From a virus (taxonomy: Duplodnaviria > Heunggongvirae > Uroviricota > Caudoviricetes): 64,000 nucleotides of DNA. Positions 1-47,255 of the stretch are shown one piece after another (position 1 is the stretch's first letter; every line of letters begins with the position of its first letter). The notes beneath the pieces were generated by a model. It was given only the letters and a program-made list of their open reading frames with translations, made no database searches and had not been told where the DNA came from. Both the position numbers and the translations under genes were made by a program. Location: IMG/VR virus record IMGVR_UViG_3300045051_000014. The stretch is one strand, 5' to 3'.

Positions 1-2
1 AT

Positions 3-404
3 CATGTGGATGCACTAATTGCTGTGCTAGAACGCGGTAAGATCGGTGAGCAATACTGCATCGGCGGTGGCACGCAGAAGACGAACATCGAAATCGCAAC
101 CTCCATCATCGGCTGTATCGGCGGTTAGTTCGAACAGATCGCGTTTGTCGAAGATCGCAAGGGACACGACTTCCGCTACGACATAGATAGTGATAAGCTC
201 TATCTCCACACCGGTTGGAAGCCAATACGTGCATTCCCGCGTGGACTTAGAGAAACTGTAGAATGGTATCGTAATAATATTGAATGGGTGAAATCATGCA
301 GAAGTGCCTCGGAATCATACTCGCAGGCGGCAAAAGCTCGCGCCTCTATCCCGCCACATTTGCTACGACCAAGCAAGTTCTCCCCATCTACGACAAGCCC
401 CTGA
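3..404 (+). pseudogene. rmlB: dTDP-glucose 4,6-dehydratase (RmlB) 3' portion; 5' end lies outside window; reading frame interrupted by in-frame TAG at 126-128
   Basis: Translation ...ERGKIGEQYCIGGGTQKTNIEIATSIIGCIGG*FEQIAFVEDRKGHDFRYDIDSDKLYLHTGWKPIRAFPRGLRETVEWYRNNIEWV matches conserved RmlB C-terminus (NIGG..., DRPGHDRRYAID, IRKTVEWY) on both sides of the stop. Confidence 0.6.
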
Positions 405-1183
405 TCTACTATCCCCTGTCAACTCTCATGTTGGCGGGGATTCGGGATTTTGTTGTAATCACTACGCCGGAAGAACAACAGGTCTTCAAGACGCTCCTAT
501 GGGATGCCGACGAGCGCATGGGCATCAACGTCCACTTTGCCGTACAGGACTATCCTCGCGGCATTGCCGACGCATTCAACGTGGTATCCAAGACCTATCC
601 CCAATTCGTTACCGAGTTCTCCAAGTTCGTATTGATCTTAGGGGATAACATCTTCTACGGCAGTGCTTTGAGCGAACTATTGGAAGACACCGTGGCAAGT
701 ACCCATGCCGCCTGTGTTGTCGCAAAAGTGAAAGATCCCGAAAGATTCGGTGTAATTACAATTGACGAGCGTTCGCAACCCATTGATATCGAAGAGAAAC
801 CAAAGCACCCTAAGTCTAATCTTGCTATAACTGGACTGTACGTTTTCGATTCCACCGTTTTCTACAGGGTCCGCGAACAGAAATTATCCCCTCGCGGAGA
901 ATTAGAGATAACGGATGTATTGAAAGATTACATGGTGAATGGTGATCTAAGAGTGGTTAGTCTTCTAAGAGGAATGATCTGGTTCGACACCGGTACCGCA
1001 GACTCGCTACTGGAAGCCGCTAATCTGGTACAGTCAATACAAAAACATCACGGATATATGGTTGGCAATCCACACGAAATCGCGTATAATAGAGGTTGGA
1101 TCGACCATGAATCACTAAGACTAACTGCGCAATTGTGCGAGAAGTCTGCATATGGTCAATACTTATTGGAGTTACTATCTTGA
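284..1183 (+). CDS. rmlA: glucose-1-phosphate thymidylyltransferase
   Basis: GIILAGGKSSRLYP, VLPIYDKPLIYYPLSTLMLAGIRD motifs typical of RmlA; alternative start ATG 296. Confidence 0.9.
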   Translation: MGEIMQKCLGIILAGGKSSRLYPATFATTKQVLPIYDKPLIYYPLSTLMLAGIRDFVVITTPEEQQVFKTLLWDADERMGINVHFAVQDYPRGIADAFNVVSKTYPQFVTEFSKFVLILGDNIFYGSALSELLEDTVASTHAACVVAKVKDPERFGVITIDERSQPIDIEEKPKHPKSNLAITGLYVFDSTVFYRVREQKLSPRGELEITDVLKDYMVNGDLRVVSLLRGMIWFDTGTADSLLEAANLVQSIQKHHGYMVGNPHEIAYNRGWIDHESLRLTAQLCEKSAYGQYLLELLS

Positions 1184-2484
1184 AACTGACACCTGAACAA
1201 CGGCACTTCTACATTCACGAACTCGCGAAAGAACTGCCGCCATGGGCGTATAACGCAGGCGCAGAGTTTGAACCGGGAAAGACTCCTGTGTATTACTCTG
1301 GTCCGTACATGGATCATCATGAGATTGAGGCAGCACTCAAGACATTCCTCACCGGCAAGTGGTTGGTGACGGGTGAAGAGGTCGCGAAGTTCCAGTGGAA
1401 GTTCGCACGCAAGTTTGGCGTGAAGTGGGCGCACATGGTCAACTCCGGTTCCTCTGCGAATCTGGTCATGATCGCCGCACTCAAGAGTTGGATGGGTTGG
1501 GACGAACATTCAGAAATCATCGTGTCGCCTGTGGGCTTCCCGACCACCATTGCACCTATCGTGCAGAACGGCATGAAGGCAGTGTTCGCAGACATTGAAC
1601 TCGACACGCTCAACTTCGACCTAGAAGATGTAGAGCGTAAGATCCGTAAGAACACGGTCGCTATCTTTGTCTCGCCTGTTCTCGGTAATCCGCCGAACAT
1701 GGATGAACTCAAGCGCATGTGCGACGATGCAGGCATTCTCCTGATCGGTGACAACTGCGACTCCCTCGGTACTAAGTGGAAGGGTAAGTGGCTGACGGAT
1801 TACTATGCCGCGTGGTCAACCTCCTTCTATCCCGCACATCACATGACAACCGGCGAAGGCGGAATGGTATGTTCAAATGACGAAGAAATCATCAAGCTTG
1901 CAAGACAGTTCTCATGGTGGGGAAGGGATTGTGTTTGCGTCGGCGCAGCCAATCTTAAGCCCTGCGGATCCTGTGGAAAGCGTTTCGACAACTGGCTCGC
2001 GCCTGACTATAATGGGATCGTTGACCATAAATACGTCTTCGCTCAGATGGGGTACAACCTCAAGCCGCTCGACTTTCAAGGTGCGATTGGTTCCGTTCAG
2101 CTAGACAAGTTCGATGAGATTCATCTGCACCGGCAGCAGTCCTACGACACCATTCGGGCTATCATCGAAACCTACGTGCCAGAAGTGACGGTAGTGGGTA
2201 ATCTGGATGAAGCCGAAGTCTCATGGTTTGGTGTGCCGATTCTCTGCGACAGTGCGGATGTAAAGACGCGCCTACAGGCTCACTTCGAAGCCAACAAGAT
2301 TCAGACGCGAAACTACTTCGCAGGCAACATTCTGCTTCACCCCGGCTACAAGCATCTAGACGACTTCAAGCGTTACCCTAATGCGAATCAGGCGTTGGAC
2401 CGCGTGTTCTTTGTGGGCGCAGCCCCGCACTACGGTCCTGAAATCTTCAACTGGTTTGAAACGGTACTCTCACAATGGACCTGA
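1135..2484 (+). CDS. PLP/PMP-dependent sugar aminotransferase/3-dehydrase, DegT/RfbH(E1)-like, with C-terminal Cys cluster
   Basis: YYSGPYMDHHEIEA...TGKWLVTGEEVAKF...NSGSSANL pattern of DegT/RfbH family; CxCx9CxxC cluster; start uncertain (overlaps rmlA end). Confidence 0.7.
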   Translation: MREVCIWSILIGVTILKLTPEQRHFYIHELAKELPPWAYNAGAEFEPGKTPVYYSGPYMDHHEIEAALKTFLTGKWLVTGEEVAKFQWKFARKFGVKWAHMVNSGSSANLVMIAALKSWMGWDEHSEIIVSPVGFPTTIAPIVQNGMKAVFADIELDTLNFDLEDVERKIRKNTVAIFVSPVLGNPPNMDELKRMCDDAGILLIGDNCDSLGTKWKGKWLTDYYAAWSTSFYPAHHMTTGEGGMVCSNDEEIIKLARQFSWWGRDCVCVGAANLKPCGSCGKRFDNWLAPDYNGIVDHKYVFAQMGYNLKPLDFQGAIGSVQLDKFDEIHLHRQQSYDTIRAIIETYVPEVTVVGNLDEAEVSWFGVPILCDSADVKTRLQAHFEANKIQTRNYFAGNILLHPGYKHLDDFKRYPNANQALDRVFFVGAAPHYGPEIFNWFETVLSQWT

Positions 2485-3329
2485 CCGTATTCGGGCATAC
2501 AGGATTCGTCGGCAGTCATTTCGTTCAGAGATACTGCCAGACGGACGACCTGTATCTGCCACCTCGCTATTCGCGTAGACCCAATCCATACAAGAAAACG
2601 GATATCCTATATCTAATCTCCACTACGCACAACTACCATGTGTTTGACGATCCGACTCTGGACGTTAAGACTAATCTGGTGGTGCTGACGGAAGCCCTAG
2701 AGTCTTGGAAGAACAACAATCCGGAAGGCGTATTCAACTTTGTGTCATCGTGGTTTGTCTATGGTGAACGGCATGGACTTGAACATAATAGGGCGGTGGC
2801 AGAAACCGCAGTATGTCGTCCAAAAGGTTTTTATTCTATCACAAAACACTGCGCGGAACAATTGGTAAGATCATTCGCAGAAACCCACAATCTGAGCTAC
2901 CGAATCCTACGGCTATGTAACATCCTAGGACCGGGAGACATGGGTGTATCTGCGAAGAAGAACGCGCTCCAATACCTGATCAATGAAATGAAGCACGACC
3001 GCCCAATCTCCATCTACGGGACGGGAGAGTTTACCCGCACCTACATGGACGTTCTGGATTGCGTCGAAGCCCTCCATCTAGTCATGGAAAAGGGTGAAGA
3101 GAACACCATCTACAACATCGGCACGGAACCGGCACAGAAGTTCATCGACCTAATCAAGACTGCCCATCAGTTGCTAGGTAGCAAGTCTGAGATTAACTAC
3201 ATCAAACCTAAGAAGTTCCATCAGCAGGTTCAGGTAGAGAACTTCTCCATGGACTGTTCCAAGCTTAAGAAGCTAGGATTTGAACCAAAATACAGCATCC
3301 TCGGAACGGTAGCCCGACTGTGTAAATAA
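2475..3329 (+). CDS. NAD(P)-dependent sugar-nucleotide epimerase/reductase (SDR fold)
   Basis: N-terminal Rossmann GHTGFVGSH; 284 aa; operonic with rml genes. Confidence 0.6.
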   Translation: MDLTVFGHTGFVGSHFVQRYCQTDDLYLPPRYSRRPNPYKKTDILYLISTTHNYHVFDDPTLDVKTNLVVLTEALESWKNNNPEGVFNFVSSWFVYGERHGLEHNRAVAETAVCRPKGFYSITKHCAEQLVRSFAETHNLSYRILRLCNILGPGDMGVSAKKNALQYLINEMKHDRPISIYGTGEFTRTYMDVLDCVEALHLVMEKGEENTIYNIGTEPAQKFIDLIKTAHQLLGSKSEINYIKPKKFHQQVQVENFSMDCSKLKKLGFEPKYSILGTVARLCK

Positions 3330-3356
3330 GCTAAATAGAGCATCAACCCTCCCACA

Positions 3357-4559
3357 GTGCGGAAGAAGATGCTCAAATTCAGCCAGTTCATCATAGAGAA
3401 TGTCGAAGACACGGCAAAACTCTCCCATCTGGAACACGCCGAAGACCATGTAATCAATGCCGGTTCTGCCGGTGTTCATCATGCCGTCCGGACGCTCGTT
3501 GGCGTTCACCATAAGCTTTTGGGGCATAACACCCCGGTCAAGCTCACCACCAAGTATGACGGCGCTCCATCCCTGATCTTCGGGCATCACCCGGAGTCTA
3601 AGAAGTTCTTTGTCGCTTCCAAGTCGGCATTCAACAAGACTCCTAAGATCAATTACACTCATGATGACGTAGACCGGAATCACGGTCACGCTCCCGGTCT
3701 AGCATCCAAGCTCAAGACCGCACTAGACCATCTTCCCAAGGTTACACCCAAGGGGCGCGTGTTTCAGGGTGACGTAATGTACACCAAGGGTGACGTTCAT
3801 TCGACGCAAACCCACCATTCCTTCAAGCCTAATACCATCAAGTATTCGGTCAAGAAGGATTCTCCGACCGGTCAGAAGGTGGAAAAGGCACACATTGGCG
3901 TGGCTGTTCACACCGAGTACAAGGGCGACGACCTCCATTCGCTCAAAGCTCACTTCGCTCCGGATACTTCCGACTTCAAGGATCATCCGGATGCTCACAT
4001 TATCGGAACCCACACTAAGGCTGATGCTGCGGACTATAAGCCAAAGGATCGTGTCAAGTTCTTCACCCATATCAAAAAGGCAAAGGACGCGGCTTCTGGT
4101 CAGTCTTTTGACCATCTTGATCACCCTGTCCGCGAACATGTCAAGACCTACATCAACCACACTGTTCGCACTGGAACTACTCCATCTGTCGGTGGACTCA
4201 TCAAGCATGTCGAGCAGAAGCACGAAGCTAAGAAGGATATGGTCAAAACTGATAAGTCTAAGCAAGCCATCGAAGCAACGAAACAGTCTCACCTATCGCA
4301 CATTGCGGCTCATAAGGAAGCTTTTGGGAACACTCTCGCGGTTCACAAGCACCTTCAAAACGCCAAGCACGTACTCGTCAAGGCACTCTCCAAGAGCGAC
4401 GAGTTCGACCACCACATCGGGGAAAAGGAATCGGGTCCGGAAGGACACGTTGCCATTGTGGGTTCTAAACCCACAAAATTAGTAGATCGTGGATCGGGTG
4501 GATTCGCCTCTGCCAACCTGAATGCCGGTGGAATCAAAGGCTTAAAGAAAGCTAAATAA
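3357..4559 (+). CDS. Lys/His-rich basic protein; possible covalent nucleotidyltransferase (ligase-like) fold
   Basis: 400-aa ORF; motifs in ligase order: KYDGAP (motif I-like), VFQGDVMY (III-like), EGHVAIVGSK..KLVDR (IV/V-like); otherwise low complexity K/H rich. Confidence 0.55.
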   Translation: MRKKMLKFSQFIIENVEDTAKLSHLEHAEDHVINAGSAGVHHAVRTLVGVHHKLLGHNTPVKLTTKYDGAPSLIFGHHPESKKFFVASKSAFNKTPKINYTHDDVDRNHGHAPGLASKLKTALDHLPKVTPKGRVFQGDVMYTKGDVHSTQTHHSFKPNTIKYSVKKDSPTGQKVEKAHIGVAVHTEYKGDDLHSLKAHFAPDTSDFKDHPDAHIIGTHTKADAADYKPKDRVKFFTHIKKAKDAASGQSFDHLDHPVREHVKTYINHTVRTGTTPSVGGLIKHVEQKHEAKKDMVKTDKSKQAIEATKQSHLSHIAAHKEAFGNTLAVHKHLQNAKHVLVKALSKSDEFDHHIGEKESGPEGHVAIVGSKPTKLVDRGSGGFASANLNAGGIKGLKKAK

Positions 4560-4590
4560 TACAGTTGGAAATTACCCACAGAGCGGTACA

Positions 4591-5865
4591 ATGTCTCACG
4601 CAACTTTCACCTTTGGACGCTTCAATCCGCCGACCGAATCCGGTCACGGCAAGCTAGTCTCTGCTGTTCAGGCTCATGCCGAGAAGACAGGCGGTAAGCA
4701 CTACATCTTCCCATCCCATTCTCAGGATCCAAAGAAGAACCCTCTGAGCCATGGTGACAAGGTGGGAGCCATGAAGAAGCTCTTCCCTTCGGCAAATATT
4801 GTATCCCACCCCGACGTAAAGAACGCAATTCATGCCCTCAAGCATCTTGAATCTAAGGGACATACACACGCAACGATGATCGTTGGTGATGACAGGGTGC
4901 ATGAATTCCACAAGCTACTCCATGCCTACAACGGCAAGGAATACAACTTCAAGAAGATCGAAGTCAAGTCCGCAGGACACCGCGACCCGGATGCAGAAGG
5001 CTCCGAGGGCATGTCCGCATCCAAGCTACGCGGTCTGGTCAAGAGCGGCAAGCGCGACGAGTTCATTTCCCATTACTCCGACAAGAAGCTCGGAGCCGAA
5101 ATTCATGACAAAGTGAAGGCAAACATGAGCGAATCCAAGGCGATGTTCATTCTCGGCGGTCCCGGTTCCGGAAAGGACTACGTGATCAACAATATCCTCA
5201 AGCGTTACGATCTGGTAGAAGTCCAGATGGATCAGATTCTCAACGGCGCAGTCAAGCCTCTGATCGAACAGGGTGTGGATCTTCTGATCAATGGTAATGC
5301 GGATAAGGATAAGATCATCCTTGTCAAGAGCATTCTTGAGAACTATTCGTTCTCACACACCATCGTTTCGGTTACTAATAAGGTGTCGCGTGAGCGCAAC
5401 GCCACTCGCGACCGTCCGTTGTCTGAGCAGACCCGCATTCGTAAGTGGTTGGATTGTGAGAACATTTCGCTGCCCAACTCATTCATCTTCAAGAACTCAC
5501 TCAACTTAGTAGAAGCTTCGAAGACCGAACTCAGCGATTTCCAGAATCAGATCGAAGCCTATCTCGGATTCCTCCAAGAGAACAAGTTCTACACCCTTGC
5601 CGAAGTCCTAGAGTGGGGAACCGATGAAACGGTTCGCACGTTTAAAGAAGCGACTCCCGGTGAGAGTGTCGTAGACACCAAACCAAAGCTTACCGTCAAG
5701 GCACTGCGTAAGCGTGGTGTAAAGGGTATGCCACCAAACGCATATGACTCTCGCGTGGGTGGAGTCCAGTATACTAACTACGCAGGTGGCGGTGCCTATA
5801 CGGGCGGCGCATTCGGCGGATTGGTTTCCAGCTATCAGCACGACAAGAATAAGAAGGTACTGTAA
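4591..5865 (+). CDS. fusion protein: N-terminal cytidylyltransferase-like (HxGH-type) domain + C-terminal P-loop nucleotide kinase-like domain
   Basis: FTFGRFNPPTESGHGKLV (PPAT/NMNAT-like T/HxGH), MSASKLRGL (ISxSxxR motif), later ILGGPGSGKDY Walker A of AK/Pnk type. Confidence 0.6.
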   Translation: MSHATFTFGRFNPPTESGHGKLVSAVQAHAEKTGGKHYIFPSHSQDPKKNPLSHGDKVGAMKKLFPSANIVSHPDVKNAIHALKHLESKGHTHATMIVGDDRVHEFHKLLHAYNGKEYNFKKIEVKSAGHRDPDAEGSEGMSASKLRGLVKSGKRDEFISHYSDKKLGAEIHDKVKANMSESKAMFILGGPGSGKDYVINNILKRYDLVEVQMDQILNGAVKPLIEQGVDLLINGNADKDKIILVKSILENYSFSHTIVSVTNKVSRERNATRDRPLSEQTRIRKWLDCENISLPNSFIFKNSLNLVEASKTELSDFQNQIEAYLGFLQENKFYTLAEVLEWGTDETVRTFKEATPGESVVDTKPKLTVKALRKRGVKGMPPNAYDSRVGGVQYTNYAGGGAYTGGAFGGLVSSYQHDKNKKVL

Positions 5866-5866
5866 C

Positions 5867-6889
5867 ATGTCTCAGAAAGCGTGGATGAACGCATACACCA
5901 AGGGATCGAAGGATATGCAGGCTCGGCTTGCCAAGATCCACAAGAACAATCCTGAGTTTCAGGATTTCGTCAAGAAGCACGGCTTCGGCGGCAACCTTTC
6001 CAAGAAGCAGTCTGAATTGCAGAGCAAGGGTTCTGTTCAGACGGTCAAGCCCGTCACACCCGCTTCGCCTGAGAAGAATCAGAACTTGGATCGTGAAGCT
6101 CTAATCAAGGCAGCAGCCGTTAAGTTGCGCAATCGTCGGCTTGCCAACTCTAATCGTGTGGCATTTGGCGGCGAATTAGGTGGAGACTTCTCCATGCATC
6201 GTGGTGGATGGCGGCGCTATTCCGAGTCCGTAGAAGAATCCGTTGCCGCTAACTTCCGTAAGATCGTTCCCGGTCTTGGAAAACTACAGGCAAAGAACCG
6301 CGCCATTGATCTAGACAATGAGCTAACGAAAGGCATTCAAAACAAGACCCTGACTCGCATACAGCGCATGGCAAAAGCAAAGCACATCGAACGTTTCGCT
6401 CGCGTGGCATCCGGTGAACCTGCATTTAAGAGAAATCCTGCTAACGGCTTCGGTGAGTCGGTAGACGAAGATATTGCCTACAAGGATGGCACGATTGCCA
6501 TGTACCGTGGTGGATGGATCGCAAAGCGTGATGGTAAGAAGATCGGCACCACCATGCCATCTGATAAGCACGCAAGGGAACTTTTAGATGCGACTCACAA
6601 GAGCCTCGCACAGAAGACCATGACGGCACTCAAGAGCAAAGCCAAGTCGGTCATGCAGGGATTTGCCGCACGCAAGTTGGCTACCGAGTCTGCCGCAAAT
6701 CGTCGGCGCATTCGTTCATGGGACTCAGCCGTTCTTCCTGTAGAACACGATCATCCCCTACATACAGAACACCCAAAGAAAAAGCTTGACGCTCTTAGAG
6801 CGGCAGGCAAACACGTAGAAGCACGCGAGCTAGAACGCTCATGGCTAAGAAAAGCAATGGCTAAAGCAAAGACGGAGAACTCAAAATGA
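5867..6889 (+). CDS. hypothetical Lys/Arg-rich basic protein with internal (M/I)xRGGW repeat
   Basis: long ORF, ATG after TAA of upstream gene, internal repeat AFGGELGGDFSMHRGGWRRY / AYKDGTIAMYRGGWIAKRDG. Confidence 0.6.
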   Translation: MSQKAWMNAYTKGSKDMQARLAKIHKNNPEFQDFVKKHGFGGNLSKKQSELQSKGSVQTVKPVTPASPEKNQNLDREALIKAAAVKLRNRRLANSNRVAFGGELGGDFSMHRGGWRRYSESVEESVAANFRKIVPGLGKLQAKNRAIDLDNELTKGIQNKTLTRIQRMAKAKHIERFARVASGEPAFKRNPANGFGESVDEDIAYKDGTIAMYRGGWIAKRDGKKIGTTMPSDKHARELLDATHKSLAQKTMTALKSKAKSVMQGFAARKLATESAANRRRIRSWDSAVLPVEHDHPLHTEHPKKKLDALRAAGKHVEARELERSWLRKAMAKAKTENSK

Positions 6890-23541: not shown

Positions 23542-24516
23542 ATGAAGCGATATATTGTGACGGGTGGCGCGGGATTTCTCGGCAGTCATCTGTGTGAACG
23601 TTTGATGGAACTGGATGAAACCTGTAAGGTATTTGCTGTAGATAACCTGTCATCTTCGAACGGTGACAATCTTCACAAGCTGCGCAAGTATGGCTACAAT
23701 CGTTTTGAGTTTGCTGAACTCGACGTATGCAAAGAGAATACGTGGTGGCAGTTGGATCATCATGGTCCCTTTGATGGCATCTTCAATCTGGCTTGCCCCG
23801 CATCCCCACCGTTCTATCAGAACATGCCCATTGAGACTACTCTCACTTGTGTACTAGGAGCGCACTATGCCTTGGAATACGCAACGAAATGGGGATGTAA
23901 AGTTCTCCAAACATCTACTTCGGAAGTTTACGGTGATCCAGAGGTTTCTCCTCAACCGGAATCGTACCGTGGCAAGGTCAATTGCTTTGGACCGCGAGCG
24001 TGCTACGATGAGGGCAAGCGTGCTGCCGAAGCTCTCTTCTTCGACTACCAGAAGCAAAGCGGTACAGATATTAGGGTGGTCCGTATTTTCAATACTTACG
24101 GTCCTCACATGCTTGCTAATGATGGTCGCGTGGTAAGCAACTTCATCATGCAGGGACTCAAGGGCGAAGACCTCACCATCTACGGTGACGGCACGCAGTC
24201 GCGTTCTTTCTGTTATGTCGAAGACCTGATCAACGCAATCATGATTGTCTGGAAGTCTAATTACAAGGCTCCGGTCAATATCGGTAATCCAAAAGAGTTC
24301 ACGATGCTTGAACTTGCGGAGAAGGTAATTAGAATTACAGGTGGTAAATCCAAATTAGTCTTTAAGGATCTGCCTACCGACGATCCTCTTCAACGCTGTC
24401 CCGACATTTCCCTAGCGAAATCATTGGGTTGGGTGGGACCGAGAATTGAACTTGACGAGGGGCTACGAAATACTGTACAATACTTCCTGAGTCGAGCATT
24501 ATCGACTAGGAGATAA
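23542..24516 (+). CDS. UDP-glucuronate decarboxylase-like NAD-dependent epimerase/dehydratase (SDR)
   Basis: IVTGGAGFLGSHLCERL Rossmann motif, catalytic YDEGKRAAE (YxxxK); length 324 aa like UXS/ArnA C-domain. Confidence 0.8.
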   Translation: MKRYIVTGGAGFLGSHLCERLMELDETCKVFAVDNLSSSNGDNLHKLRKYGYNRFEFAELDVCKENTWWQLDHHGPFDGIFNLACPASPPFYQNMPIETTLTCVLGAHYALEYATKWGCKVLQTSTSEVYGDPEVSPQPESYRGKVNCFGPRACYDEGKRAAEALFFDYQKQSGTDIRVVRIFNTYGPHMLANDGRVVSNFIMQGLKGEDLTIYGDGTQSRSFCYVEDLINAIMIVWKSNYKAPVNIGNPKEFTMLELAEKVIRITGGKSKLVFKDLPTDDPLQRCPDISLAKSLGWVGPRIELDEGLRNTVQYFLSRALSTRR

Positions 24517-24763: not shown

Positions 24764-25818
24764 TGGCTGTCAAGCAAGTCAGAACTCGGCGCGTCCATGC
24801 GCCGGTTGACCATGAGCCGAAGTGGACCGACAAGGCACTTCCGCAGCGCATTGATATCATCAAGGCGTTGAACTGGTACAACACGGAACGCGACGAGAAG
24901 GATGCTGCAAAGATCCTCAAGACGACTCCCGGCATTGCGCGTGAGTTCCTGACGCTTGCGTGGACAGTGCGCATGAAAGAGCGCGGCTTCCCTGTGCTGA
25001 AAGAATCCGAAGCGACGGTGCTACGGATGACGCACGCATTTCGCGAACGGCTGAAAGCTGCGAAGCCTGTACTGGTTGACAAGACCAACGTGGTTTCCAT
25101 TCAGGAACGCATTCAGGGTAAGACCAACGAAATCATTGGCGAAATGGAAGGCTTGATTGATGACTACGGAATCCGTGGTGATCACACTAAGCTGAATGCC
25201 TATCAGTGGATGGTGGACAACGATGTGAAGCCAATTCACGCCAATCGCATTGCCGACCATTTCCGCGAGTGCAGCAAGGAAGTCCTGCTTGCCGCGTCTG
25301 GTAAGGATGCGTTCCTCAAGGAAGCGTATCACAACTTCACCAAACCGCGCATTCTCAATCTGCTGCACACGTATGCCGCGATTGTCAAGGATGCGGAACG
25401 ACTTGCTGCCAATGCTTCCAAGCAGCGCAAGCCACGCAAGAAAAAGCCGGTGTCCTTCGAAAAGATGGTTGCCAAGATCAAGTACAAGGTCAAGGATGAC
25501 AGCCTCAAGCTGCAATCCGTGGATCCGGTCAAGATCGTGGGTGCCATTCAGTTGTGGGTTTACAACACTAAGACTCGTAAGCTAGGCGTGTACAATGCCG
25601 AAGACGAGTCGGGTTTGAAGGTGAAGGGAACCAGTATCAAGAACTACGTCGAAAGTACGTCAGTTTCGAAGACGTTGCGCAAGCCTGACAAGACCCTGCC
25701 GTTGGTGGTAGATGGCGGCAAGATCCAGTTGAGAAAGGTGCTAGATGGCATCAATTCGAAACCGATTAAGATGAATGGAAGAATTGGCAAGGACACCCTG
25801 TTACTCCGTGTTGTATGA
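24763..25818 (+). CDS. hypothetical protein
   Basis: 351 aa ORF, ATGG overlap with upstream stop. Confidence 0.6.
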   Translation: MAVKQVRTRRVHAPVDHEPKWTDKALPQRIDIIKALNWYNTERDEKDAAKILKTTPGIAREFLTLAWTVRMKERGFPVLKESEATVLRMTHAFRERLKAAKPVLVDKTNVVSIQERIQGKTNEIIGEMEGLIDDYGIRGDHTKLNAYQWMVDNDVKPIHANRIADHFRECSKEVLLAASGKDAFLKEAYHNFTKPRILNLLHTYAAIVKDAERLAANASKQRKPRKKKPVSFEKMVAKIKYKVKDDSLKLQSVDPVKIVGAIQLWVYNTKTRKLGVYNAEDESGLKVKGTSIKNYVESTSVSKTLRKPDKTLPLVVDGGKIQLRKVLDGINSKPIKMNGRIGKDTLLLRVV

Positions 25819-25834
25819 GTTTGAAATAGAACGC

Positions 25835-25996
25835 ATGGTCCGTGACAGGGATCTAATGCGTGCCGGTGGCAACTATCCTGCCGCAGACCGAATGCGGCAG
25901 GAGATTGAATCCATCGTGGATGGAAACTATCGGGTTGCCCTGTTGGACGAGCCGGAAGGCACCTTCTGGTACTGGACGACTTCGAAACCTAAATAG
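25835..25996 (+). CDS. hypothetical small protein
   Basis: short ORF, weak. Confidence 0.3.
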   Translation: MVRDRDLMRAGGNYPAADRMRQEIESIVDGNYRVALLDEPEGTFWYWTTSKPK

Positions 25997-26032
25997 AAGG
26001 TTCCTCAACCCTGCCTAAGAGGATTCCCGCCA

Positions 26033-26575
26033 ATGGTTAAAGTTCTCAGCAACCACATGAGGGGCGTAGATCGCGTCCTTCTTCGTCGTTATGCTAATTG
26101 GGTGCTTCGTAAATTCGTCCGTCCTAGCGTCCTGAACAAATCAACCATTATCATTAAGGTCATTACCGCAAACGAACTCACCGACCGTTCCGATTATTCA
26201 GACTTCACCGATGCGAAGGCATGGATGACGTATGATGGAATTGTGGACGGCAAGAAAAAGTTCACCGTGATCCTGAATGCGGCGCGTCAGGGTAAGAAGT
26301 CCAAGACACCGTGGGTCCGCATCAAGATGCTCATGATGAACGTCGGACATGAAATGATTCACATCAAGCAGTATCTCAACAACGAACTGTTTGACTACGT
26401 GGACGGCAAGGCACGTTACAAGGGACAGGTGTTCCACCTAGGTCACTCAGACGACCTAGAGAAGTATTTCGACTCCCCATGGGAAATCGAAGCCTACGGC
26501 AGAGAGTATGGATTGTACAAAGTGTTTGTACGTAAACTGAAAGATGAACTGAAAGAGAAGAACAAAAAGAAATGA
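26033..26575 (+). CDS. zinc-metallopeptidase-like protein (HExxH)
   Basis: MMNVGHEMIHIKQY motif. Confidence 0.5.
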   Translation: MVKVLSNHMRGVDRVLLRRYANWVLRKFVRPSVLNKSTIIIKVITANELTDRSDYSDFTDAKAWMTYDGIVDGKKKFTVILNAARQGKKSKTPWVRIKMLMMNVGHEMIHIKQYLNNELFDYVDGKARYKGQVFHLGHSDDLEKYFDSPWEIEAYGREYGLYKVFVRKLKDELKEKNKKK

Positions 26576-34241: not shown

Positions 34242-34802
34242 ATGGACACCGTTCCACAAGTTCACACTCTTCTGAGCGTCTTCACGCCGGAAGAGTGTTC
34301 GCGCATTATCGCATTTGGTCTTAACGGACCACTGACTCCCGGCTATTCACCGGGAATGCGCATTGACCCCGACCGACGTTCCTCTTTTATTCGTTTCATC
34401 TATCCGGATGAAGGTACACATTGGATCTTTTCGCGCCTCTGGAAGACTCTAGAGCATTCGGGGTTTTCCGAAGGTATTACGACTCTTAACTTTGCTCAAT
34501 TCACTGAGTATAAGGCAGAGTACGGTGGTCACTTCTCCCTGCATCGGGATACGGAAGTTTTCTATCACGCCACGGATACTACGCATATGAAGCGCAAGGT
34601 CACACTTGTAATTCAACTTAGTGATCCGGATACTTACGAAGGCGGCGACCTTGAATTCGTGTACGGGAAGAATCAAAGTTTGTATGGACAACGATGCCAT
34701 GGTTGTGCTATACTGTTTCCAGCTAAGACGCTTCATAAGGCTAATAGAGTCACAAAAGGCGAGCGATATTCGCTAGTCGCGTGGTTCGAAGGTCCGAAGT
34801 AG
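34242..34802 (+). CDS. 2OG-Fe(II) oxygenase, prolyl 4-hydroxylase-like
   Basis: HRDTE (HxD) ... H...; KRKVTLVIQLSD..YEGGDLEF pattern of P4Hc domain. Confidence 0.7.
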   Translation: MDTVPQVHTLLSVFTPEECSRIIAFGLNGPLTPGYSPGMRIDPDRRSSFIRFIYPDEGTHWIFSRLWKTLEHSGFSEGITTLNFAQFTEYKAEYGGHFSLHRDTEVFYHATDTTHMKRKVTLVIQLSDPDTYEGGDLEFVYGKNQSLYGQRCHGCAILFPAKTLHKANRVTKGERYSLVAWFEGPK

Positions 34803-41805: not shown

Positions 41806-41881
41806 GCAAGCGTCGTCTAACGGCTAGGATACTAGACTTTCAATCTGGAAGATGCGGGTTCGAATCCCGTCGCTTGCTCCA
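41806..41881 (+). tRNA. tRNA-Glu(TTC)
   Basis: manual fold: acceptor gcaagcg/cgcttgc, anticodon loop cTTTCaa, T-arm gcgggTTCGAATcccgt, CCA encoded. Confidence 0.75.
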
Positions 41882-42069
41882 ATTTTTCGGAGCGCGGTTA
41901 ATTCTCGCGTTCGAATACTGAGTCGGAAAAAGTCGGGGTTCAATTCCCTGTCATGCGCTTCGGTGTATGGTGGTGTAACGGCAGCACAGTTCCATTTGAG
42001 AGATTCGCGTCACCCGTCGCGACAAGCGAGGTCTGTAACAACAGGCTGAAATTACGGGTAATGAACAAT

Positions 42070-42145
42070 TCCGGGTTGACTAGAGTGGTAATAGCCGCGA
42101 CTGTTAATCGCGTATTCGTAGGTTCGATCCCTACACCCGGAGCCA
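42070..42145 (+). tRNA. tRNA-Asn(GTT)
   Basis: acceptor tccgggt/acccgga, anticodon stem cgcga/tcgcg loop ctGTTaa, T-loop TTCGATC, CCA. Confidence 0.75.
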
Positions 42146-42153
42146 ATTTTTAT

Positions 42154-42228
42154 GGTCCCTTGGTATAACGGCTATTATGCGAAGCTGTCTACTTCGCGAA
42201 ACGGGTTCGACTCCCGTAGGGATCGCCA
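42154..42228 (+). tRNA. tRNA-Asp(GTC)
   Basis: acceptor ggtccct/agggatc, anticodon loop ctGTCta, T-arm acgggTTCGACTcccgt, CCA. Confidence 0.65.
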
Positions 42229-42232
42229 ATTT

Positions 42233-42306
42233 GGGGAGTTAGTATAACGGGATTATTTCTCGCTTGCACCGAGAAGACAAGGGTTCGATTCCCTTACTCT
42301 CCACCA
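42233..42306 (+). tRNA. tRNA-Ala(TGC)
   Basis: acceptor ggggagt/actctcc with G3-U70, anticodon loop ctTGCac, CCA. Confidence 0.8.
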
Positions 42307-42311
42307 ATCAT

Positions 42312-42388
42312 GGGTCTGTCGTATAACGGCATATTATATTCGGCTCTTAACCGATAAGATTAGGGTTCGATTCCCTACAGACCCACCA
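42312..42388 (+). tRNA. tRNA-Lys(CTT)
   Basis: perfect acceptor gggtctg/cagaccc, loop ctCTTaa, T-loop TTCGATT. Confidence 0.7.
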
Positions 42389-42396
42389 ATTACTAT

Positions 42397-42481
42397 GGTC
42401 AAGTATACCGTTAAAGACGCGGAACCGGCTGTAACCCGGTTGTCTCAGACTGGCTAGGAGCGTTACCTAGATTGACCACCA
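42397..42481 (+). tRNA. tRNA-Tyr(GTA)-like, long variable arm, non-canonical T-loop AGCGTTA
   Basis: anticodon stem accgg/ccggt loop ctGTAac; variable hairpin gtc-tca-gac; T-stem ctagg/cctag; one acceptor mismatch. Confidence 0.45.
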
Positions 42482-42491
42482 ATTCATCGTC

Positions 42492-42567
42492 GGGTTCATG
42501 GCGTAACGGCGAGCGCATCGGGCTTTTACCCCGTAAGGTCAGGGTTCGAATCCCTGTGAACCCACCA
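42492..42567 (+). tRNA. tRNA-Lys(TTT)
   Basis: perfect acceptor gggttca/tgaaccc, loop cTTTTac, T-arm agggTTCGAATccct. Confidence 0.7.
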
Positions 42568-42571
42568 ACAT

Positions 42572-42666
42572 GTTCCTGTGGTGTAACGGCAGCACTCCAC
42601 TCTTATAAGGTGGCAATGGCGGCAGATTACCGCATGGTCTAGGTTCGAATCCTAGCAGGAACACCA
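42572..42666 (+). tRNA. atypical 95-nt tRNA-like gene, anticodon ambiguous (TAT or GAT depending on which internal hairpin is the anticodon arm)
   Basis: perfect acceptor gttcctg/caggaac + ACCA, canonical T-arm ctaggTTCGAATcctag, D-arm gtgtaacggcagcac, but two internal hairpins (ccact-cttataa-ggtgg and gcgg-cagatta-ccgc). Confidence 0.45.
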
Positions 42667-42673
42667 GAACAAT

Positions 42674-42748
42674 GCCGGTGTCATCTAATGGCGAAGATGG
42701 TCGCCCGATTAGCGACTCATAAGGGTTCAAGTCCTTTCACCGGTACCA
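42674..42748 (+). tRNA. tRNA-Ile(GAT)-like (C33 instead of U33)
   Basis: perfect acceptor gccggtg/caccggt, anticodon stem gtcgc/gcgac loop ccGATta, T-loop TTCAAGT. Confidence 0.55.
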
Positions 42749-42756
42749 ATTTATTT

Positions 42757-42833
42757 CGGGGTTTAGCTCAGTCTGGTAGAGCGTCTGCTTTGGGAGCAGA
42801 ATGTCAAGTGTTCGAATCACTTATCCCCGACCA
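42757..42833 (+). tRNA. tRNA-Pro(TGG)
   Basis: D-arm gctcagtctggtagagc, anticodon stem tctgc/gcaga loop ttTGGga, T-loop TTCGAAT. Confidence 0.7.
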
Positions 42834-42839
42834 ATTTCT

Positions 42840-42918
42840 GCGAGCGTGGCGTAACAGGCAAACGCGGCAGACTTAAAATCTGCGACATTTGTGAGTTCGA
42901 ATCTCACCGTTCGCACCA
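42840..42918 (+). tRNA. tRNA-Leu(TAA), class-I length (7-nt variable loop, no long arm), A73
   Basis: acceptor gcgagcg/cgttcgc, D gcgt-aacaggcaa-acgc, anticodon gcaga/tctgc loop ctTAAaa, T-arm gtgagTTCGAATctcac. Confidence 0.65.
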
Positions 42919-42927
42919 AAGTATAAT

Positions 42928-43002
42928 GCGGGTAAGGTGTTAATAGATACACGGCGGTCTTCCAAACCTCAGTTGTGGGCGCGATACCCACTACCCGCTC
43001 CA
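42928..43002 (+). tRNA. tRNA-Gly(TCC), T-loop CGCGATA
   Basis: acceptor gcgggta/tacccgc, loop ctTCCaa, discriminator U + CCA; resembles phage-type tRNA-Gly. Confidence 0.7.
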
Positions 43003-43131
43003 ATTTGCTCGTTGATCGGTGAGCCTGACGGCAGATCCGCAAATGTCAAATGCGTTGGTTCGCATTCCGGCTCTCTCCATACAGCGGGAGAGTATCGGGT
43101 AAGACGGTTCGATTCCGCAGCAAAACAATTT

Positions 43132-43207
43132 GTCCTCATAGCATAACGGAAAGTGCGTCGGGCTTCTACCCCGTTCGGTGTGGGTTCGATTCCTACTGAG
43201 GACACCA
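43132..43207 (+). tRNA. tRNA-Arg(TCT)
   Basis: perfect acceptor gtcctca/tgaggac, loop ctTCTac, T-arm gtgggTTCGATTcctac. Confidence 0.7.
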
Positions 43208-43213
43208 AATTAT

Positions 43214-43289
43214 GTTGGGTTAGTATAACGGCTATTACAGCAGTCTCCAAAACTGCACGATGGGAGTTCGAATCTCTCACCCAACGCCA
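43214..43289 (+). tRNA. tRNA-Trp(CCA)
   Basis: perfect acceptor gttgggt/acccaac, anticodon gcagt/actgc loop ctCCAaa, G73. Confidence 0.8.
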
Positions 43290-43301
43290 ATCACAAACAA
43301 T

Positions 43302-43379
43302 GGGACGTTGAAGGGAACTGGTATACCTTTCACGCTTAGAACGTGAAGCTTCTCGGTTCGAATCCGAGGCGTCCTACCA
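43302..43379 (+). tRNA. tRNA-Leu(TAG), class-I length, A73
   Basis: D aagg-gaactggtat-acct, anticodon tcacg/cgtga loop ctTAGaa, 5-nt variable, T-arm ctcggTTCGAATccgag. Confidence 0.6.
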
Positions 43380-43530
43380 ATGCATAGGTTGTCAACAAAC
43401 CTCAATAGACGTAAGAGAAAACCTTACGGTGATGAAATCGTGTTGAACGCACTCTTCATGCGTCATAGTCTTAAAGCGATAAGACAGGAGCGTTGTCTCG
43501 GATACGTAACCGGGGCGGCTATTCAACAAT

Positions 43531-43605
43531 GCCCTCTTAGTATAACGGAAAGAATACTTCGCTACGAACGAAGAGGTAGGGGTTCGATTCCCTTAGAGGG
43601 TACCA
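43531..43605 (+). tRNA. tRNA-Arg(ACG)
   Basis: anticodon cttcg/cgaag loop ctACGaa, T-loop TTCGATT. Confidence 0.7.
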
Positions 43606-43610
43606 ACATT

Positions 43611-43685
43611 GTCTCTGTAGTGTAATGGAAAACACGCAACTCTCCGAAGGTTGTAATTCAGGCTCGACTCCTGACAGGGACACCA
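43611..43685 (+). tRNA. tRNA-Arg(CCG), T-loop CTCGACT
   Basis: acceptor gtctctg/cagggac, anticodon caact/ggttg loop ctCCGaa. Confidence 0.65.
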
Positions 43686-43687
43686 AT

Positions 43688-43762
43688 GGTGATATCGTAC
43701 AACGGCTAGTACCGAAGTCTCATAAGCTTTTAATGATGGTTCGATTCCATCTATCACCACCA
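43688..43762 (+). tRNA. tRNA-Met or Ile2 (CAT), elongator-type
   Basis: perfect acceptor ggtgata/tatcacc (G1-C72 so not initiator), loop ctCATaa. Confidence 0.7.
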
Positions 43763-43768
43763 AATTAC

Positions 43769-43843
43769 GCCGAGTAAGCATTGCAAGCGATGCAGGGGTC
43801 TTGTAAGCCTCAGAATGCGGGGCAGTACCGCAACACGGCACCA
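43769..43843 (+). tRNA. tRNA-Thr(TGT), non-canonical T-loop GGCAGTA
   Basis: acceptor gccgagt/acacggc (one A-A mismatch), D gcat-tgcaagcg-atgc, loop ctTGTaa. Confidence 0.5.
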
Positions 43844-43848
43844 ACTAT

Positions 43849-43924
43849 GTAAGCGTGGCAGACCGGCAGATGCAGCAGGTTGCAACCCTGTTTTAAGTAG
43901 GTTCGACTCCTATCGCTTACTCCA
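43849..43924 (+). tRNA. tRNA-Cys(GCA)
   Basis: perfect acceptor gtaagcg/cgcttac, loop ttGCAac, U73, T-loop TTCGACT. Confidence 0.75.
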
Positions 43925-44020
43925 AACAAGCTGATGCGGGGTTCGACACCCCTGATGATCGCTAGAGGGTTGCAAACTTCTAACGACTAATGAAGGACGC
44001 TCATCGGCTCTAAACACAAT

Positions 44021-44094
44021 GCCCGATTCGTAAAATGGCATTACCTCGCTTTTACACGGCGAAGTTGGCAGTTCGATTCTGTCATCGGGTACCA
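44021..44094 (+). tRNA. tRNA-Val(TAC)
   Basis: acceptor gcccgat/atcgggt, D gtaa-aatggca-ttac, anticodon tcgct/ggcga loop ttTACac. Confidence 0.7.
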
Positions 44095-44165
44095 AACACA
44101 GCAAACGTTATGCGTTTCAAAGGGAGCGGCTGCAAAGCAAACTGGCTTCCACCAATTCAGACAAT

Positions 44166-44241
44166 AGCGGAAGGGTGAAACGGTTTACATTCTAGCCTCA
44201 TAAGCTAGAGACATTGGGTTCGACTCCCATGACCGCTACCA
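44166..44241 (+). tRNA. tRNA-Met(CAT)-like with imperfect acceptor (5 bp + AA/GA mismatches at 6-67,7-66)
   Basis: anticodon ctagc/gctag loop ctCATaa, T-loop TTCGACT, ACCA end. Confidence 0.45.
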
Positions 44242-44247
44242 AACAAT

Positions 44248-44328
44248 GTCCCAAAGAGAGCGAACGGAACGCCTGTTGCCATTGGCAATGCAAGCTAGCT
44301 ACGGTTTCGATGCCGTTGCGGGACACCA
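44248..44328 (+). tRNA. tRNA-like element, anticodon undetermined (possible pseudogene)
   Basis: acceptor gtccc(aa)/(gc)gggac + ACCA, aacgg D-loop, no clean 7-nt anticodon loop, odd T-region tttcgatg. Confidence 0.3.
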
Positions 44329-44333
44329 ATTAC

Positions 44334-44407
44334 GTCCGATTAGCTTAAAAGTGAAGCACCGTGCTGATAACGCGGAGAAGTAGGAGCATTACCTACATTG
44401 GACACCA
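44334..44407 (+). tRNA. tRNA-Ile(GAT), T-loop AGCATTA
   Basis: acceptor gtccgat/attggac, D gctt-aaaagtg-aagc, anticodon ccgtg/cgcgg loop ctGATaa (canonical Ile loop). Confidence 0.6.
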
Positions 44408-44512
44408 ACTACATTCAGCGCACAAACTCTTGCCATTTAAACGGGCGAGTATGCAGAGTGCGGTCCTGCGTCAACAGGGCGAAGCGATTTTGACGAATCG
44501 TAGACTGCGTGC

Positions 44513-44587
44513 GCCGCCATAGTATAATGGTCATTACAAGGTCTTGGTAAGACTTGAATCACAGTTCGATTCTGTGTGGTGGCACCA
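44513..44587 (+). tRNA. tRNA-Thr(GGT)
   Basis: acceptor gccgcca/tggtggc, loop ttGGTaa, T-arm cacagTTCGATTctgtg. Confidence 0.75.
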
Positions 44588-44592
44588 ACAAT

Positions 44593-44678
44593 GCGGAAGT
44601 AGCCTAGCGGTTAGGCACTTGCTTGCCAAGCAAGAGTGCGAAAGCCAAACGCGAGTTCGAATCTCGTCTTCCGCTCCA
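44593..44678 (+). tRNA. tRNA with anticodon GCC (Gly) but 86 nt with ~16-nt variable region
   Basis: perfect acceptor gcggaag/cttccgc, class-II-like D-arm gcc-tagcggtta-ggc, anticodon cttgc/gcaag loop ttGCCaa, extra agtgcgaaagccaaac before T-arm. Confidence 0.5.
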
Positions 44679-44679
44679 A

Positions 44680-45279
44680 TTAGCGTGGATCGTACCTGTA
44701 ATCAGAATGATACATGTTGACGATCCCGCGTCTTAGCTCAGAAGTAAGTTCAAGGTTAGGTATGAAGTTCGGCTTTTCGTTTTCAACGGGAATGTCGATT
44801 GCCATGCCGCCGAAGATACCAATGAGTTTTCTGGCTTCCGATTCGAAGTCATGAAAGTTGAGAACGTTCATGTTAGGATGATCAAACCAATCGGACTGCG
44901 GCTTGAAGCCAATAATGTCGGTGCGTTGAATCCTCTCTAGCAGACGATCCGGATGATTCATCTTATCTCTTAGATGTTGCGGAAGAGCGTTGTATGATTC
45001 TTCATCCAACGGTTCCGGCATACGAATACCAGTGAATGATTCGGGAAACAGTTTGATCAGGACGGTTCGATACGTGCGCAGAAAGTTGTACGCGGATACG
45101 AAACGTTCTACAGGGTCACGCCAGAAAGCGTAACCACTTGAATCTAAATACGCAGTGCTTGGAGTCTCATGCAGACTTCCGACATTCCTGCCGTAAGGTT
45201 TCAATAAGTTTCGAATGGTAGTCGAACCAGTTTTCGGCACCAGATAGAATGCGTGCTTGTTGTCATGACTAATGATCAT
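44680..45279 (-). CDS. sulfotransferase-family protein (PAPS-binding PKTGSTT motif)
   Basis: N-terminal FYLVPKTGSTTIRNLL resembles sulfotransferase 5'-PSB loop; only sizeable minus-strand gene, embedded in tRNA array. Confidence 0.55.
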   Translation of the reverse strand: MIISHDNKHAFYLVPKTGSTTIRNLLKPYGRNVGSLHETPSTAYLDSSGYAFWRDPVERFVSAYNFLRTYRTVLIKLFPESFTGIRMPEPLDEESYNALPQHLRDKMNHPDRLLERIQRTDIIGFKPQSDWFDHPNMNVLNFHDFESEARKLIGIFGGMAIDIPVENEKPNFIPNLELTSELRRGIVNMYHSDYRYDPR

Positions 45280-45439
45280 GCACGTATTTAGGGGAAGATC
45301 ATGAACTTCGAAAGAAACAGAGCATATTACTGGCGGCAGGCGCGAGCATGTTTCAAAGCCGGTTTCAAGTTCCTTCGAAGAGCAATCTTCCTTCCAAAAA
45401 GATAATGTCTCTTAAGCTAATCTAGTGAAAGCGCAGGTC

Positions 45440-45590
45440 TGAAAAGCCTGATAGGTTGGAGCGTAACCAACAGGGGACACCAGTTTCGGGATGTTTACAG
45501 CAAACCAAATACCTCGCCAAATCTGAGGGGCTGTCCAATGGGGACTGTGCGCTAGGGTTCGAATCCCTGCCTACTAGCACAACCATCCCG
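45440..45590 (+). ncRNA. tRNA-like / Y RNA-like module (ACAGCAAACCAAAT + T-arm-like GGTTCGAATCCC, no CCA)
   Basis: motif at 45497-45510; hairpins cctc..gagg, gtcc-aatg-ggac; TTCGAAT T-loop at 45557-45571 without matching acceptor. Confidence 0.4.
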
Positions 45591-45775
45591 TCTAATTGAT
45601 TGTCGCGTCACTGAAATTGAACGTGCGGACATATCGCAGCACTGAGGACATATGTTATTCCCCGCGTGGGCGAGCTTGGAGTCTTCTGCCGACAATCAAC
45701 TTTATAGAGTCAACGGATGAAATGACCTCCCTTGTGGTGCGGCAATAGCCGTATAAAAAATCCGTCGAATTCAAT

Positions 45776-45852
45776 GCACCGGTCTTCTAATAGGATAGGA
45801 AAACAGGTTCTCAACCTGTGCAATGACGGTTCGAATCCGTTCCGGTGTACCA
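45776..45852 (+). tRNA. tRNA-Glu(CTC)
   Basis: acceptor gcaccgg/ccggtgt, anticodon acagg/cctgt loop ttCTCaa, T-loop TTCGAAT. Confidence 0.65.
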
Positions 45853-45859
45853 AACATAA

Positions 45860-45934
45860 CAGGATGTAAGTCAACAGCAGACGACCTCGCTTGGAACGAG
45901 GAGGCAGTAGGGGCAGCACCTACCATCCTGACCA
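45860..45934 (+). tRNA. tRNA-Pro(TGG) second copy, T-loop GGCAGCA
   Basis: perfect acceptor caggatg/catcctg, anticodon cctcg/cgagg loop ctTGGaa. Confidence 0.55.
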
Positions 45935-45986
45935 ATTCATACTACATAGTAGACCATATGGACTACTTTGTAGTCCAAAGATCAAT

Positions 45987-46063
45987 GGTAAGTGTAGCAT
46001 AGTGGCTAATGCCCAAGACTGTGAATCTTGAAGACGCGGGTTCGAATCCCGTCGCTTACCCCA
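45987..46063 (+). tRNA. tRNA-His(GTG) with encoded G-1
   Basis: extra 5' G pairing with C73, loop ctGTGaa, T-arm gcgggTTCGAATcccgt. Confidence 0.75.
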
Positions 46064-46083
46064 AACACAAATGGAGCGAAACC

Positions 46084-46269
46084 ATGGCTGCGAAGAACGA
46101 TGTAACAGGTGATAGTATCAAAACTAAGACTGGCAATCCTGATGCGTATGCAAAGGGTTGGGATCGAATCTTCGGCAGTAAACGAACAAAGGACCGTACA
46201 CCTTCCGGTGAGCTTGCTGAACCGGTGCGCCGCAGGGCTGCGAACAAAGTACGGGCTAAGAACAATTGA
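46084..46269 (+). CDS. small basic protein (61 aa) nested between tRNA genes
   Basis: ATG with GGAG RBS 7 nt upstream; MAAKNDVTGDSIKTKTGNPDAYAKGWDRIFG... Confidence 0.35.
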   Translation: MAAKNDVTGDSIKTKTGNPDAYAKGWDRIFGSKRTKDRTPSGELAEPVRRRAANKVRAKNN

Positions 46270-46350
46270 TGGGTTGACGGTGCCGGTAACTGTCCCTAGT
46301 CTTTGAAACTAGTGCATTGCGCGTAGGTTCGACTCCTACCCCATCAGCCA
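46267..46350 (+). tRNA. tRNA-Gln(TTG) with enlarged D-loop and 10-nt variable region
   Basis: perfect acceptor tgatggg/cccatca, anticodon ctagt/actag loop ctTTGaa, T-arm gtaggTTCGACTcctac. Confidence 0.5.
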
Positions 46351-46616
46351 ATTTGCCTCTAGAGCAAAAACAACGAGTCATGTTACGTTGTAAAATAAGA
46401 ACATGCAACCATGTGCTGAAAGCAGACGGCTAACGTGCTGTCTCTCTAGCACCCACCGTTGTAGGTGGGAGTGCGGAGTGGAGTAAGAGTGGTGGTAGTA
46501 ATTGATTCCGAGATAGTTCAATAGGCAGAACAACCTCACGCTAAGAGGGAGACAGGGTTCGAATCCCACCGGAATTAGTGGCGCGGCTTCCAAGAATACC
46601 AAACGCGCCCAACTTT

Positions 46617-46690
46617 TCTCCTCTCGTCTAACGGCAGGACGCAACGCTCTGAACGTTGCTATCGTGGTTCGAATCCATGGGGGAGAGCCA
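46617..46690 (+). tRNA. tRNA-Gln(CTG)
   Basis: acceptor tctcctc/ggggaga, D gtct-aacggca-ggac, anticodon caacg/cgttg loop ctCTGaa. Confidence 0.7.
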
Positions 46691-46699
46691 AATTTAAAT

Positions 46700-46787
46700 G
46701 GAAGGTTGTCCGAGAGGCTTATGGACCCTGTTTGCTAAACAGTGGGGCGTTAAAACCACACAGGTTCGAATCCTGTACCTTCCGCCA
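46700..46787 (+). tRNA. tRNA-Ser(GCT), class II
   Basis: perfect acceptor ggaaggt/accttcc, G73, loop ttGCTaa, long variable arm, T-arm acaggTTCGAATcctgt. Confidence 0.7.
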
Positions 46788-46795
46788 AAACAAAT

Positions 46796-46883
46796 GGAAG
46801 ATTGACCGAGAGGCTTATGGTTCCCGCTTGGAAAGCGGTGAGATGTAAAAGTCACGCAGGTTCGAATCCTGCATCTTCCGCCA
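46796..46883 (+). tRNA. tRNA-Ser(GGA), class II
   Basis: perfect acceptor ggaagat/atcttcc, G73, anticodon ccgc/gcgg loop ttGGAaa, long variable arm. Confidence 0.7.
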
Positions 46884-47001
46884 AATGCAGTATAGGAAAG
46901 TATCCGAATCCAAGAGAGCCTATACCTCGCTGACGGATTCAGCCGCGCTACGTGTTGAAATGCACGGTAAAGCCGACGCGGACAAAAGTAATCGGCACAT
47001 T

Positions 47002-47075
47002 CGTCCCTTAGTATAGAAGCAATACGTTGCCTTGACATGGCAGAAAAGATGGAGCGTTACCATCAGGGACGACCA
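47002..47075 (+). tRNA. tRNA-Val(GAC), T-loop AGCGTTA
   Basis: perfect acceptor cgtccct/agggacg, D gtat-agaagca-atac, anticodon ttgcc/ggcag loop ttGACat. Confidence 0.6.
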
Positions 47076-47080
47076 ATTAT

Positions 47081-47168
47081 GGAAGGTTGGCAGAGAGGCT
47101 AATTGCCGCTGTTTCGAAAGCAGATGGGTGTAAAAACCACACAGGTTCAAATCCTGTACCTTCCGCCA
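47081..47168 (+). tRNA. tRNA-Ser(CGA), class II
   Basis: paralogous to Ser(GCT) gene (same acceptor and T-arm), loop ttCGAaa. Confidence 0.65.
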
Positions 47169-47173
47169 GATAT

Positions 47174-47250
47174 GCGAGTGTGATGTAACTGGCAAACGTG
47201 TTCGGCTCAAACCCGAATTTCTGTGGGTTCGAATCCCACCACTCGCACCA
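47174..47250 (+). tRNA. tRNA-Leu(CAA), class-I length, A73
   Basis: perfect acceptor gcgagtg/cactcgc, anticodon ttcgg/ccgaa loop ctCAAac, 5-nt variable, T-arm gtgggTTCGAATcccac. Confidence 0.65.
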
Positions 47251-47255
47251 ACTAC

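Follow-up and report, generated by a model that had tools for sequence, protein, structure and literature searches.

Classical amber (UAG) mutants, such as those of phages T4 and lambda, carry a one-base substitution that converts a sense codon to TAG and truncates the product. TAG has been reassigned to sense in recoded crAss-like and Lak phages, whose genomes contain many in-frame TAGs, gain clearly in coding density under genetic code 15, often encode a tRNA-CUA and typically read TAG as Gln (bioRxiv 10.1101/2021.08.26.457843; PMC9523058). The criterion for calling such a phage recoded is a coding-density gain of >10% for contigs of 5-100 kb, together with a better gene map (bioRxiv 10.1101/2021.08.26.457843; PMC9523058). 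We analyzed a 64,000-nucleotide stretch of Caudoviricetes DNA (IMG/VR record IMGVR_UViG_3300045051_000014, hereafter the window) in which a gene for RmlB is interrupted by an in-frame TAG.

The amber mutants of T4 and lambda are the closest real-world analogue of this locus: one base differs, the gene is a phage gene, the product would be truncated, and a host with a Ser-inserting suppressor would restore the wild type, as the ancestral codon here is TCG. Unlike those mutants, the allele described here is found in one metagenome-derived copy and in zero public assemblies. The window resembles the crAss-like and Lak phages in having an in-frame TAG in a conserved gene of a large, tRNA-rich phage. 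However, it has one such TAG, no comparable density gain and no tRNA-CUA, it uses TAG as a terminator, and its ancestral codon specifies Ser (10.1101/2021.08.26.457843; PMC9523058). The window thus differs from TAG-recoded phages in every defining feature that can be tested here.

The interrupted gene, rmlB, is predicted to encode dTDP-glucose 4,6-dehydratase. Its start lies upstream of the window, and the visible 3' part (positions 3-404, plus strand) comprises codons 221-353 of 353, the C-terminal third of the protein. Translated from base 3, the frame reads HVDALIAVLERGKIGEQYCIGGGTQKTNIEIATSIIGCIGG, then the TAG at 126-128, then FEQIAFVEDRKGHDFRYDIDS and onward to its own terminator, a TGA at 402-404. 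The TAG replaces the TCG codon of Ser262, base 127 being A here and C in a public contig. With the stop masked, the fragment aligned to PDB 6bi4 over residues 246-344 with no gap at the TAG (E 2.3e-23), to PDB 1g1a (E 8.4e-22) and to the family model TIGR01181 (E 1e-27, profile positions 223-319 of 321), where the score fell under the whole-protein cut-off because the window edge cuts the gene. Taken alone, the 41 aa upstream of the TAG matched 6bi4 residues 246-285 (E 8.5e-6), and the downstream part matched 1g1a residues 289-348 (E 8e-16) and 6bi4 residues 290-344 (E 1.1e-10). Because both flanks are significant, colinear, in the same frame and one codon apart, a chance match is ruled out.

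These alignments confirm what a sequence-only reading of the window had proposed, namely an in-frame TAG at 126-128 with RmlB similarity on either side. Its description of the region as conserved holds for the flanking blocks. The TAG codon itself aligns to a position between them that varies across the family (T in 6bi4, D in 1r66) and that adjoins an insertion in the 1g1a alignment; Ser at this position is conserved among close phage relatives only, not across the wider RmlB family. The full-length 353-aa protein, read from sister contigs (L001/L005) that include the part beyond the window, carries both the GxxGxxG NAD-binding motif (GGLGFIGS near residue 7) and the YxxxK catalytic motif (Y149-A-A-S-K153). 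The family model, the solved structures and a colinear C-terminal domain all identify the gene as rmlB.

As in characterized RmlB proteins (TIGR01181; PDB 6bi4, 1g1a), the phage frame encodes a typical RmlB C-terminal domain and lies beside rmlA in a sugar-nucleotide cluster; unlike them, it is phage-borne and overlaps the beginning of rmlA through a 35-codon tail. The rmlA gene (glucose-1-phosphate thymidylyltransferase; 296-1183, plus strand) is intact and matched TIGR01207 from residue 6 (E 4.7e-102) as well as Pfam NTP_transferase. Its ATG at 296 creates a 109-base overlap (296-404) with rmlB in different frames. The final ~35 codons of rmlB (300-404) have no RmlB homology and are an other-frame reading of the rmlA start, and this tail and its stop are kept in all relatives. 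Public gene callers start rmlA at 428, which avoids the overlap and loses the N-terminal LAGGKSSRL nucleotide-binding loop. Because of this choice, exact look-ups of RmlA proteins starting at 296 and 284 were unmatched, and the protein starting at 428 was matched. An intact gene for an RfbH/DegT-type PLP enzyme (1180-2484, plus strand) follows. Positions 1-5865 hold a phage sugar-nucleotide set made up of rmlB, rmlA, the RfbH-like enzyme and three further genes, encoding a short-chain dehydrogenase related to RmlB (2475-3329), a DUF6267 protein (3357-4559) and a cytidylyltransferase-like protein (4591-5865). A further epimerase/dehydratase is encoded at 23542-24516.

The window as a whole has a dense, almost wholly plus-strand gene map in the standard code, and its phage-type genes include those for ribonucleotide reductase, the DUF6267 protein and NAMPT. 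Gene calls on sister contigs place UvsX, DnaB and a family B DNA polymerase immediately before the start of the window and add a GP88-family protein to its gene content. A megablast search of window positions 1-6000 against 50,697 phage records returned no match, and a protein search with the ribonucleotide reductase returned distant matches only (~60% identity). There is no close relative among sequenced phage isolates.

Near-identical sequences are available in public metagenome assemblies. An exact-protein look-up retrieved JGI contig Ga0453684_0000425 (sample 3300044712), a 172,269-bp contig of a large tRNA-rich phage, four overlapping pieces of which (L005, L008, L009 and L012) jointly span window positions 1-62,203. 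Over this length the window is the reverse strand of the contig (~65,017 to 1,018) and is identical to it except at base 127, A vs C. An IMG/VR contig (L001) compared with window positions 1-1501 showed two mismatches, one of which is again base 127, where C gives TCG (Ser). An intact 353-aa rmlB ending at window position 404 is present in Ga0453684_0000425, JGI 3300042876, Logan SRR24010765 and Logan SRR24010766, and the RmlB proteins of the first three are mutually identical; the full-length gene in sister contigs L001, L005 and L007 shares its end point with the window gene. The 261-aa truncated RmlB had no exact match in a collection of ~15 billion proteins, in which the intact protein occurs on 3 contigs. 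Pattern scans that allowed any base at 127 returned only TCG contigs from viral and metagenome collections and zero from genome contigs. The TAG is therefore unique to this copy.

Ser262 is also kept at greater distances. Codon 262 is TCG in a relative with 87% nucleotide identity (L003), TCC in one with 81% (L002) and TCG in one with ~75% (L004), and Ser262 is present in nine of nine members of the 90%-identity protein cluster, which are 89-93% identical and free of frameshifts. Every relative has an intact rmlB. Per 23 kb, other samples differed from the window at ~2 sites in addition to base 127. Real variation between samples was observed at two positions only, 1468 (A here, C in 3300042876; Met vs Leu in the RfbH/DegT-like enzyme), which is the sole other variant near the TAG site, and 31088 (T here, G in 3300042876). 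The differences at 127 and 1468 are both C-to-A.

The TAG is a one-base substitution, C to A, in the middle of a conserved TCG (Ser262) of an otherwise intact phage rmlB. We propose that it most likely arose in this sequence copy, whether as an error in base calling, in the consensus or in the record, or through another alteration. We give roughly 70% probability to an error or alteration in this copy. The TAG would then not be a property of the phage, which uses the standard code with TAG as an ordinary terminator. The lack of any further difference over 62 kb, compared with ~2 sites in 23 kb between samples, suggests that the window and the public contig are one assembly, altered here at a single base, and for this reason we infer a technical cause instead of a real rare allele. 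Taken literally, the sequence would encode a 261-aa RmlB without its C-terminal 92 residues, including the conserved DRKGHDFRY, and such a protein would be inactive.

It may instead be that a real amber allele, rare or very recent in the phage population, has knocked out rmlB. The loss would be tolerated, as RmlB is available from many hosts or as the phage can do without the sugar pathway. We consider this possible but unlikely. The variants at 1468 and 31088 demonstrate that single nucleotides do vary between samples, TCG becomes TAG in one step, and the rest of the gene is undamaged, as a fresh mutation predicts. However, the allele is in no public assembly, the protein collection does not contain the truncated RmlB, relatives clearly conserve both Ser262 and the gene as a whole, and over 62 kb the window and the public contig are otherwise identical.

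The sequence-only reading had offered readthrough or suppression as one option, next to a sequencing error and a pseudogene. In that account an amber suppressor tRNA of the phage or host, programmed readthrough or a code 15-like reassignment would yield full-length RmlB. We regard it as very improbable. Of the three stops, TAG is the least used in the window, which would favor decoding: of 91 plus-strand reading frames, about 9 end in TAG, 56 in TAA and 26 in TGA. However, TAG is a bona fide terminator here, ending complete genes supported by both the gene caller and Pfam, such as those for two 2OG-Fe(II) oxygenases at 34242-34802 and 55469-55942. In a crude ORF tiling, coding density rose only from 0.859 under code 11 to 0.892 under code 15, below the >10% criterion. 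Plus-strand genes fell from 73 to 57 as antisense ORFs increased; the gain is made of spurious antisense ORFs that displace real plus-strand genes, and the gene map was not improved.

From the ORF tiling and stop usage, no other recognizable gene in the window requires TAG as sense. A search for other in-frame TAGs in conserved genes, which the sequence-only reading had suggested as a check, found none within the window; the codon in rmlB is the sole case, and it is not shared with relatives. One same-frame ORF pair split by a TAG (25775-25996 and 25997-26575) was considered and rejected, as the first member is a 46-aa call and the second an independent 180-aa gene that has its own ATG. Pyrrolysine decoding found no support either, as the window lacks a CTA tRNA and relatives have Ser at the site.

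The large tRNA set of the phage is a further point in favor of decoding. The array (41806-47784, plus strand) comprises 32 confident tRNA genes, four more at relaxed thresholds and two weak tRNA-like matches nearby. Using ARAGORN at default and relaxed settings, the Rfam tRNA model and inspection, we found the CTA anticodon in none of the 36 tRNA genes and two weak matches in the window. This upholds the earlier statement that the array has no CTA-anticodon tRNA and extends it to the atypical tRNA-like genes that had been left unassigned; the suppressor tRNA that was to be looked for is not in the window. The scan covered the window, and ~108 kb of the phage genome lies beyond it, which leaves some room for a suppressor encoded elsewhere. 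The weak matches (46507-46574 and 48009-48078, plus strand) scored 22.3 and 26.5 bits against an Rfam threshold of 29 and have good T arms and degenerate D and anticodon arms. The predicted anticodon loop of one is ACGCUAA, with GCU as the anticodon, and that of the other is 6 nt long; neither presents CUA.

Several tRNAs of the array have unusual structures. In an 84-nt tRNA at 46267-46350 (plus strand), whose anticodon is UUG (Gln), the D stem is apparently 6 bp long and the extra arm is short, and the selenocysteine tRNA model (33.7 bits, sub-threshold) outscores the general tRNA model on it; not far away, positions 46617-46690 encode an ordinary tRNA-Gln(CUG). The tRNA-Ile(UAU) at 42572-42666 (plus strand, 95 nt) and the tRNA-Gly(GCC) at 44593-44678 (plus strand, 86 nt) have long extra arms that are unusual for their identities. 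Many tRNAs of the array encode the 3' CCA. A 1.1-kb gap amid these plus-strand genes is occupied by an ORF for 199 aa with a faint sulfotransferase match (44680-45279, minus strand), the only gene-called minus-strand ORF observed in the window.

A release-factor-like protein might also be taken to favor decoding. The gene at 53508-53900 (plus strand) encodes 130 aa that correspond to a single domain of the class I release factors (RF1/RF2), the GGQ peptidyl-tRNA hydrolase domain, and the product matched PrfB (E 1e-15) and PrfH (E 4e-10) and contains the motif GAGGQHRNK. It does not have the codon-recognition domains and so is unable to read stop codons, and we rejected it as a code-change factor. 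Its neighbors encode an AAA_33 kinase-like protein (50868-51317), a T4 Rnl1-like RNA ligase (51310-52203), a metallophosphatase (52200-52769) and a DNA ligase (53958-54848). Judged by these similarities, the cluster looks like a module for RNA/tRNA repair and ribosome rescue.

A real TAG allele with partial readthrough or suppression in the infected cell, as by a non-canonical suppressor from the part of the phage genome beyond the window, is likewise highly improbable. If it were true, the allele would mark the onset of TAG reassignment in a 50% G+C phage that otherwise uses the standard code. A long-standing pseudogene, with rmlB decaying in this lineage, is scarcely credible: the in-frame stop is what speaks for it, and against it the part of the gene inside the window is, apart from that base, 100% identical to the intact copies, the nine cluster members are intact, and one changed base takes the place of the several disabling changes or relaxed conservation that decay would leave. 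Among the three options of the sequence-only reading, an error or single point change is thus the one that the comparison supports, base 127 being the sole difference over 62,203 positions; readthrough or suppression is unsupported, given that the window has no CTA tRNA, uses TAG to terminate genes and shows no genome-wide recoding signal; and a pseudogene applies only in the trivial sense of one fresh nonsense change with no other lesion.

Between tRNA-Leu(gag) and tRNA-Arg(cct), the array also contains a 194-nt RNase P RNA-like gene (47336-47529, plus strand). It scored 48.2 bits against Rfam RNaseP_arch (gathering score 84; E ~1e-12), and it has the core P4-type motifs GAGGAA..UC and ACAGAA..GGCUA, whereas the specificity domain is largely missing. 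By pattern scan, the element also occurs in six phage contigs of IMG/VR, with five distinct sequences and always inside tRNA arrays (L015, ~4780-5020; L016, ~222-425; L017, ~142-345; L018 and L019, minus strand; L020). In an alignment of the five sequences, 15 of the 53 predicted pairs show compensatory changes. The element is a candidate for a minimal RNase P RNA encoded by a phage. The literature that we searched, a limited set from which novelty is not implied, held no description of a phage-encoded RNase P RNA. This element merits attention far more than the TAG.

For rmlB, near-identical public contigs, once compared, settled the question of recoding or suppression. A lone in-frame stop in a conserved gene is, as a caution, not evidence for either. 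If the allele were real, it would be an ordinary amber knock-out. In the phage itself, rmlB and the neighboring sugar-nucleotide genes are intact and are written in the standard code.
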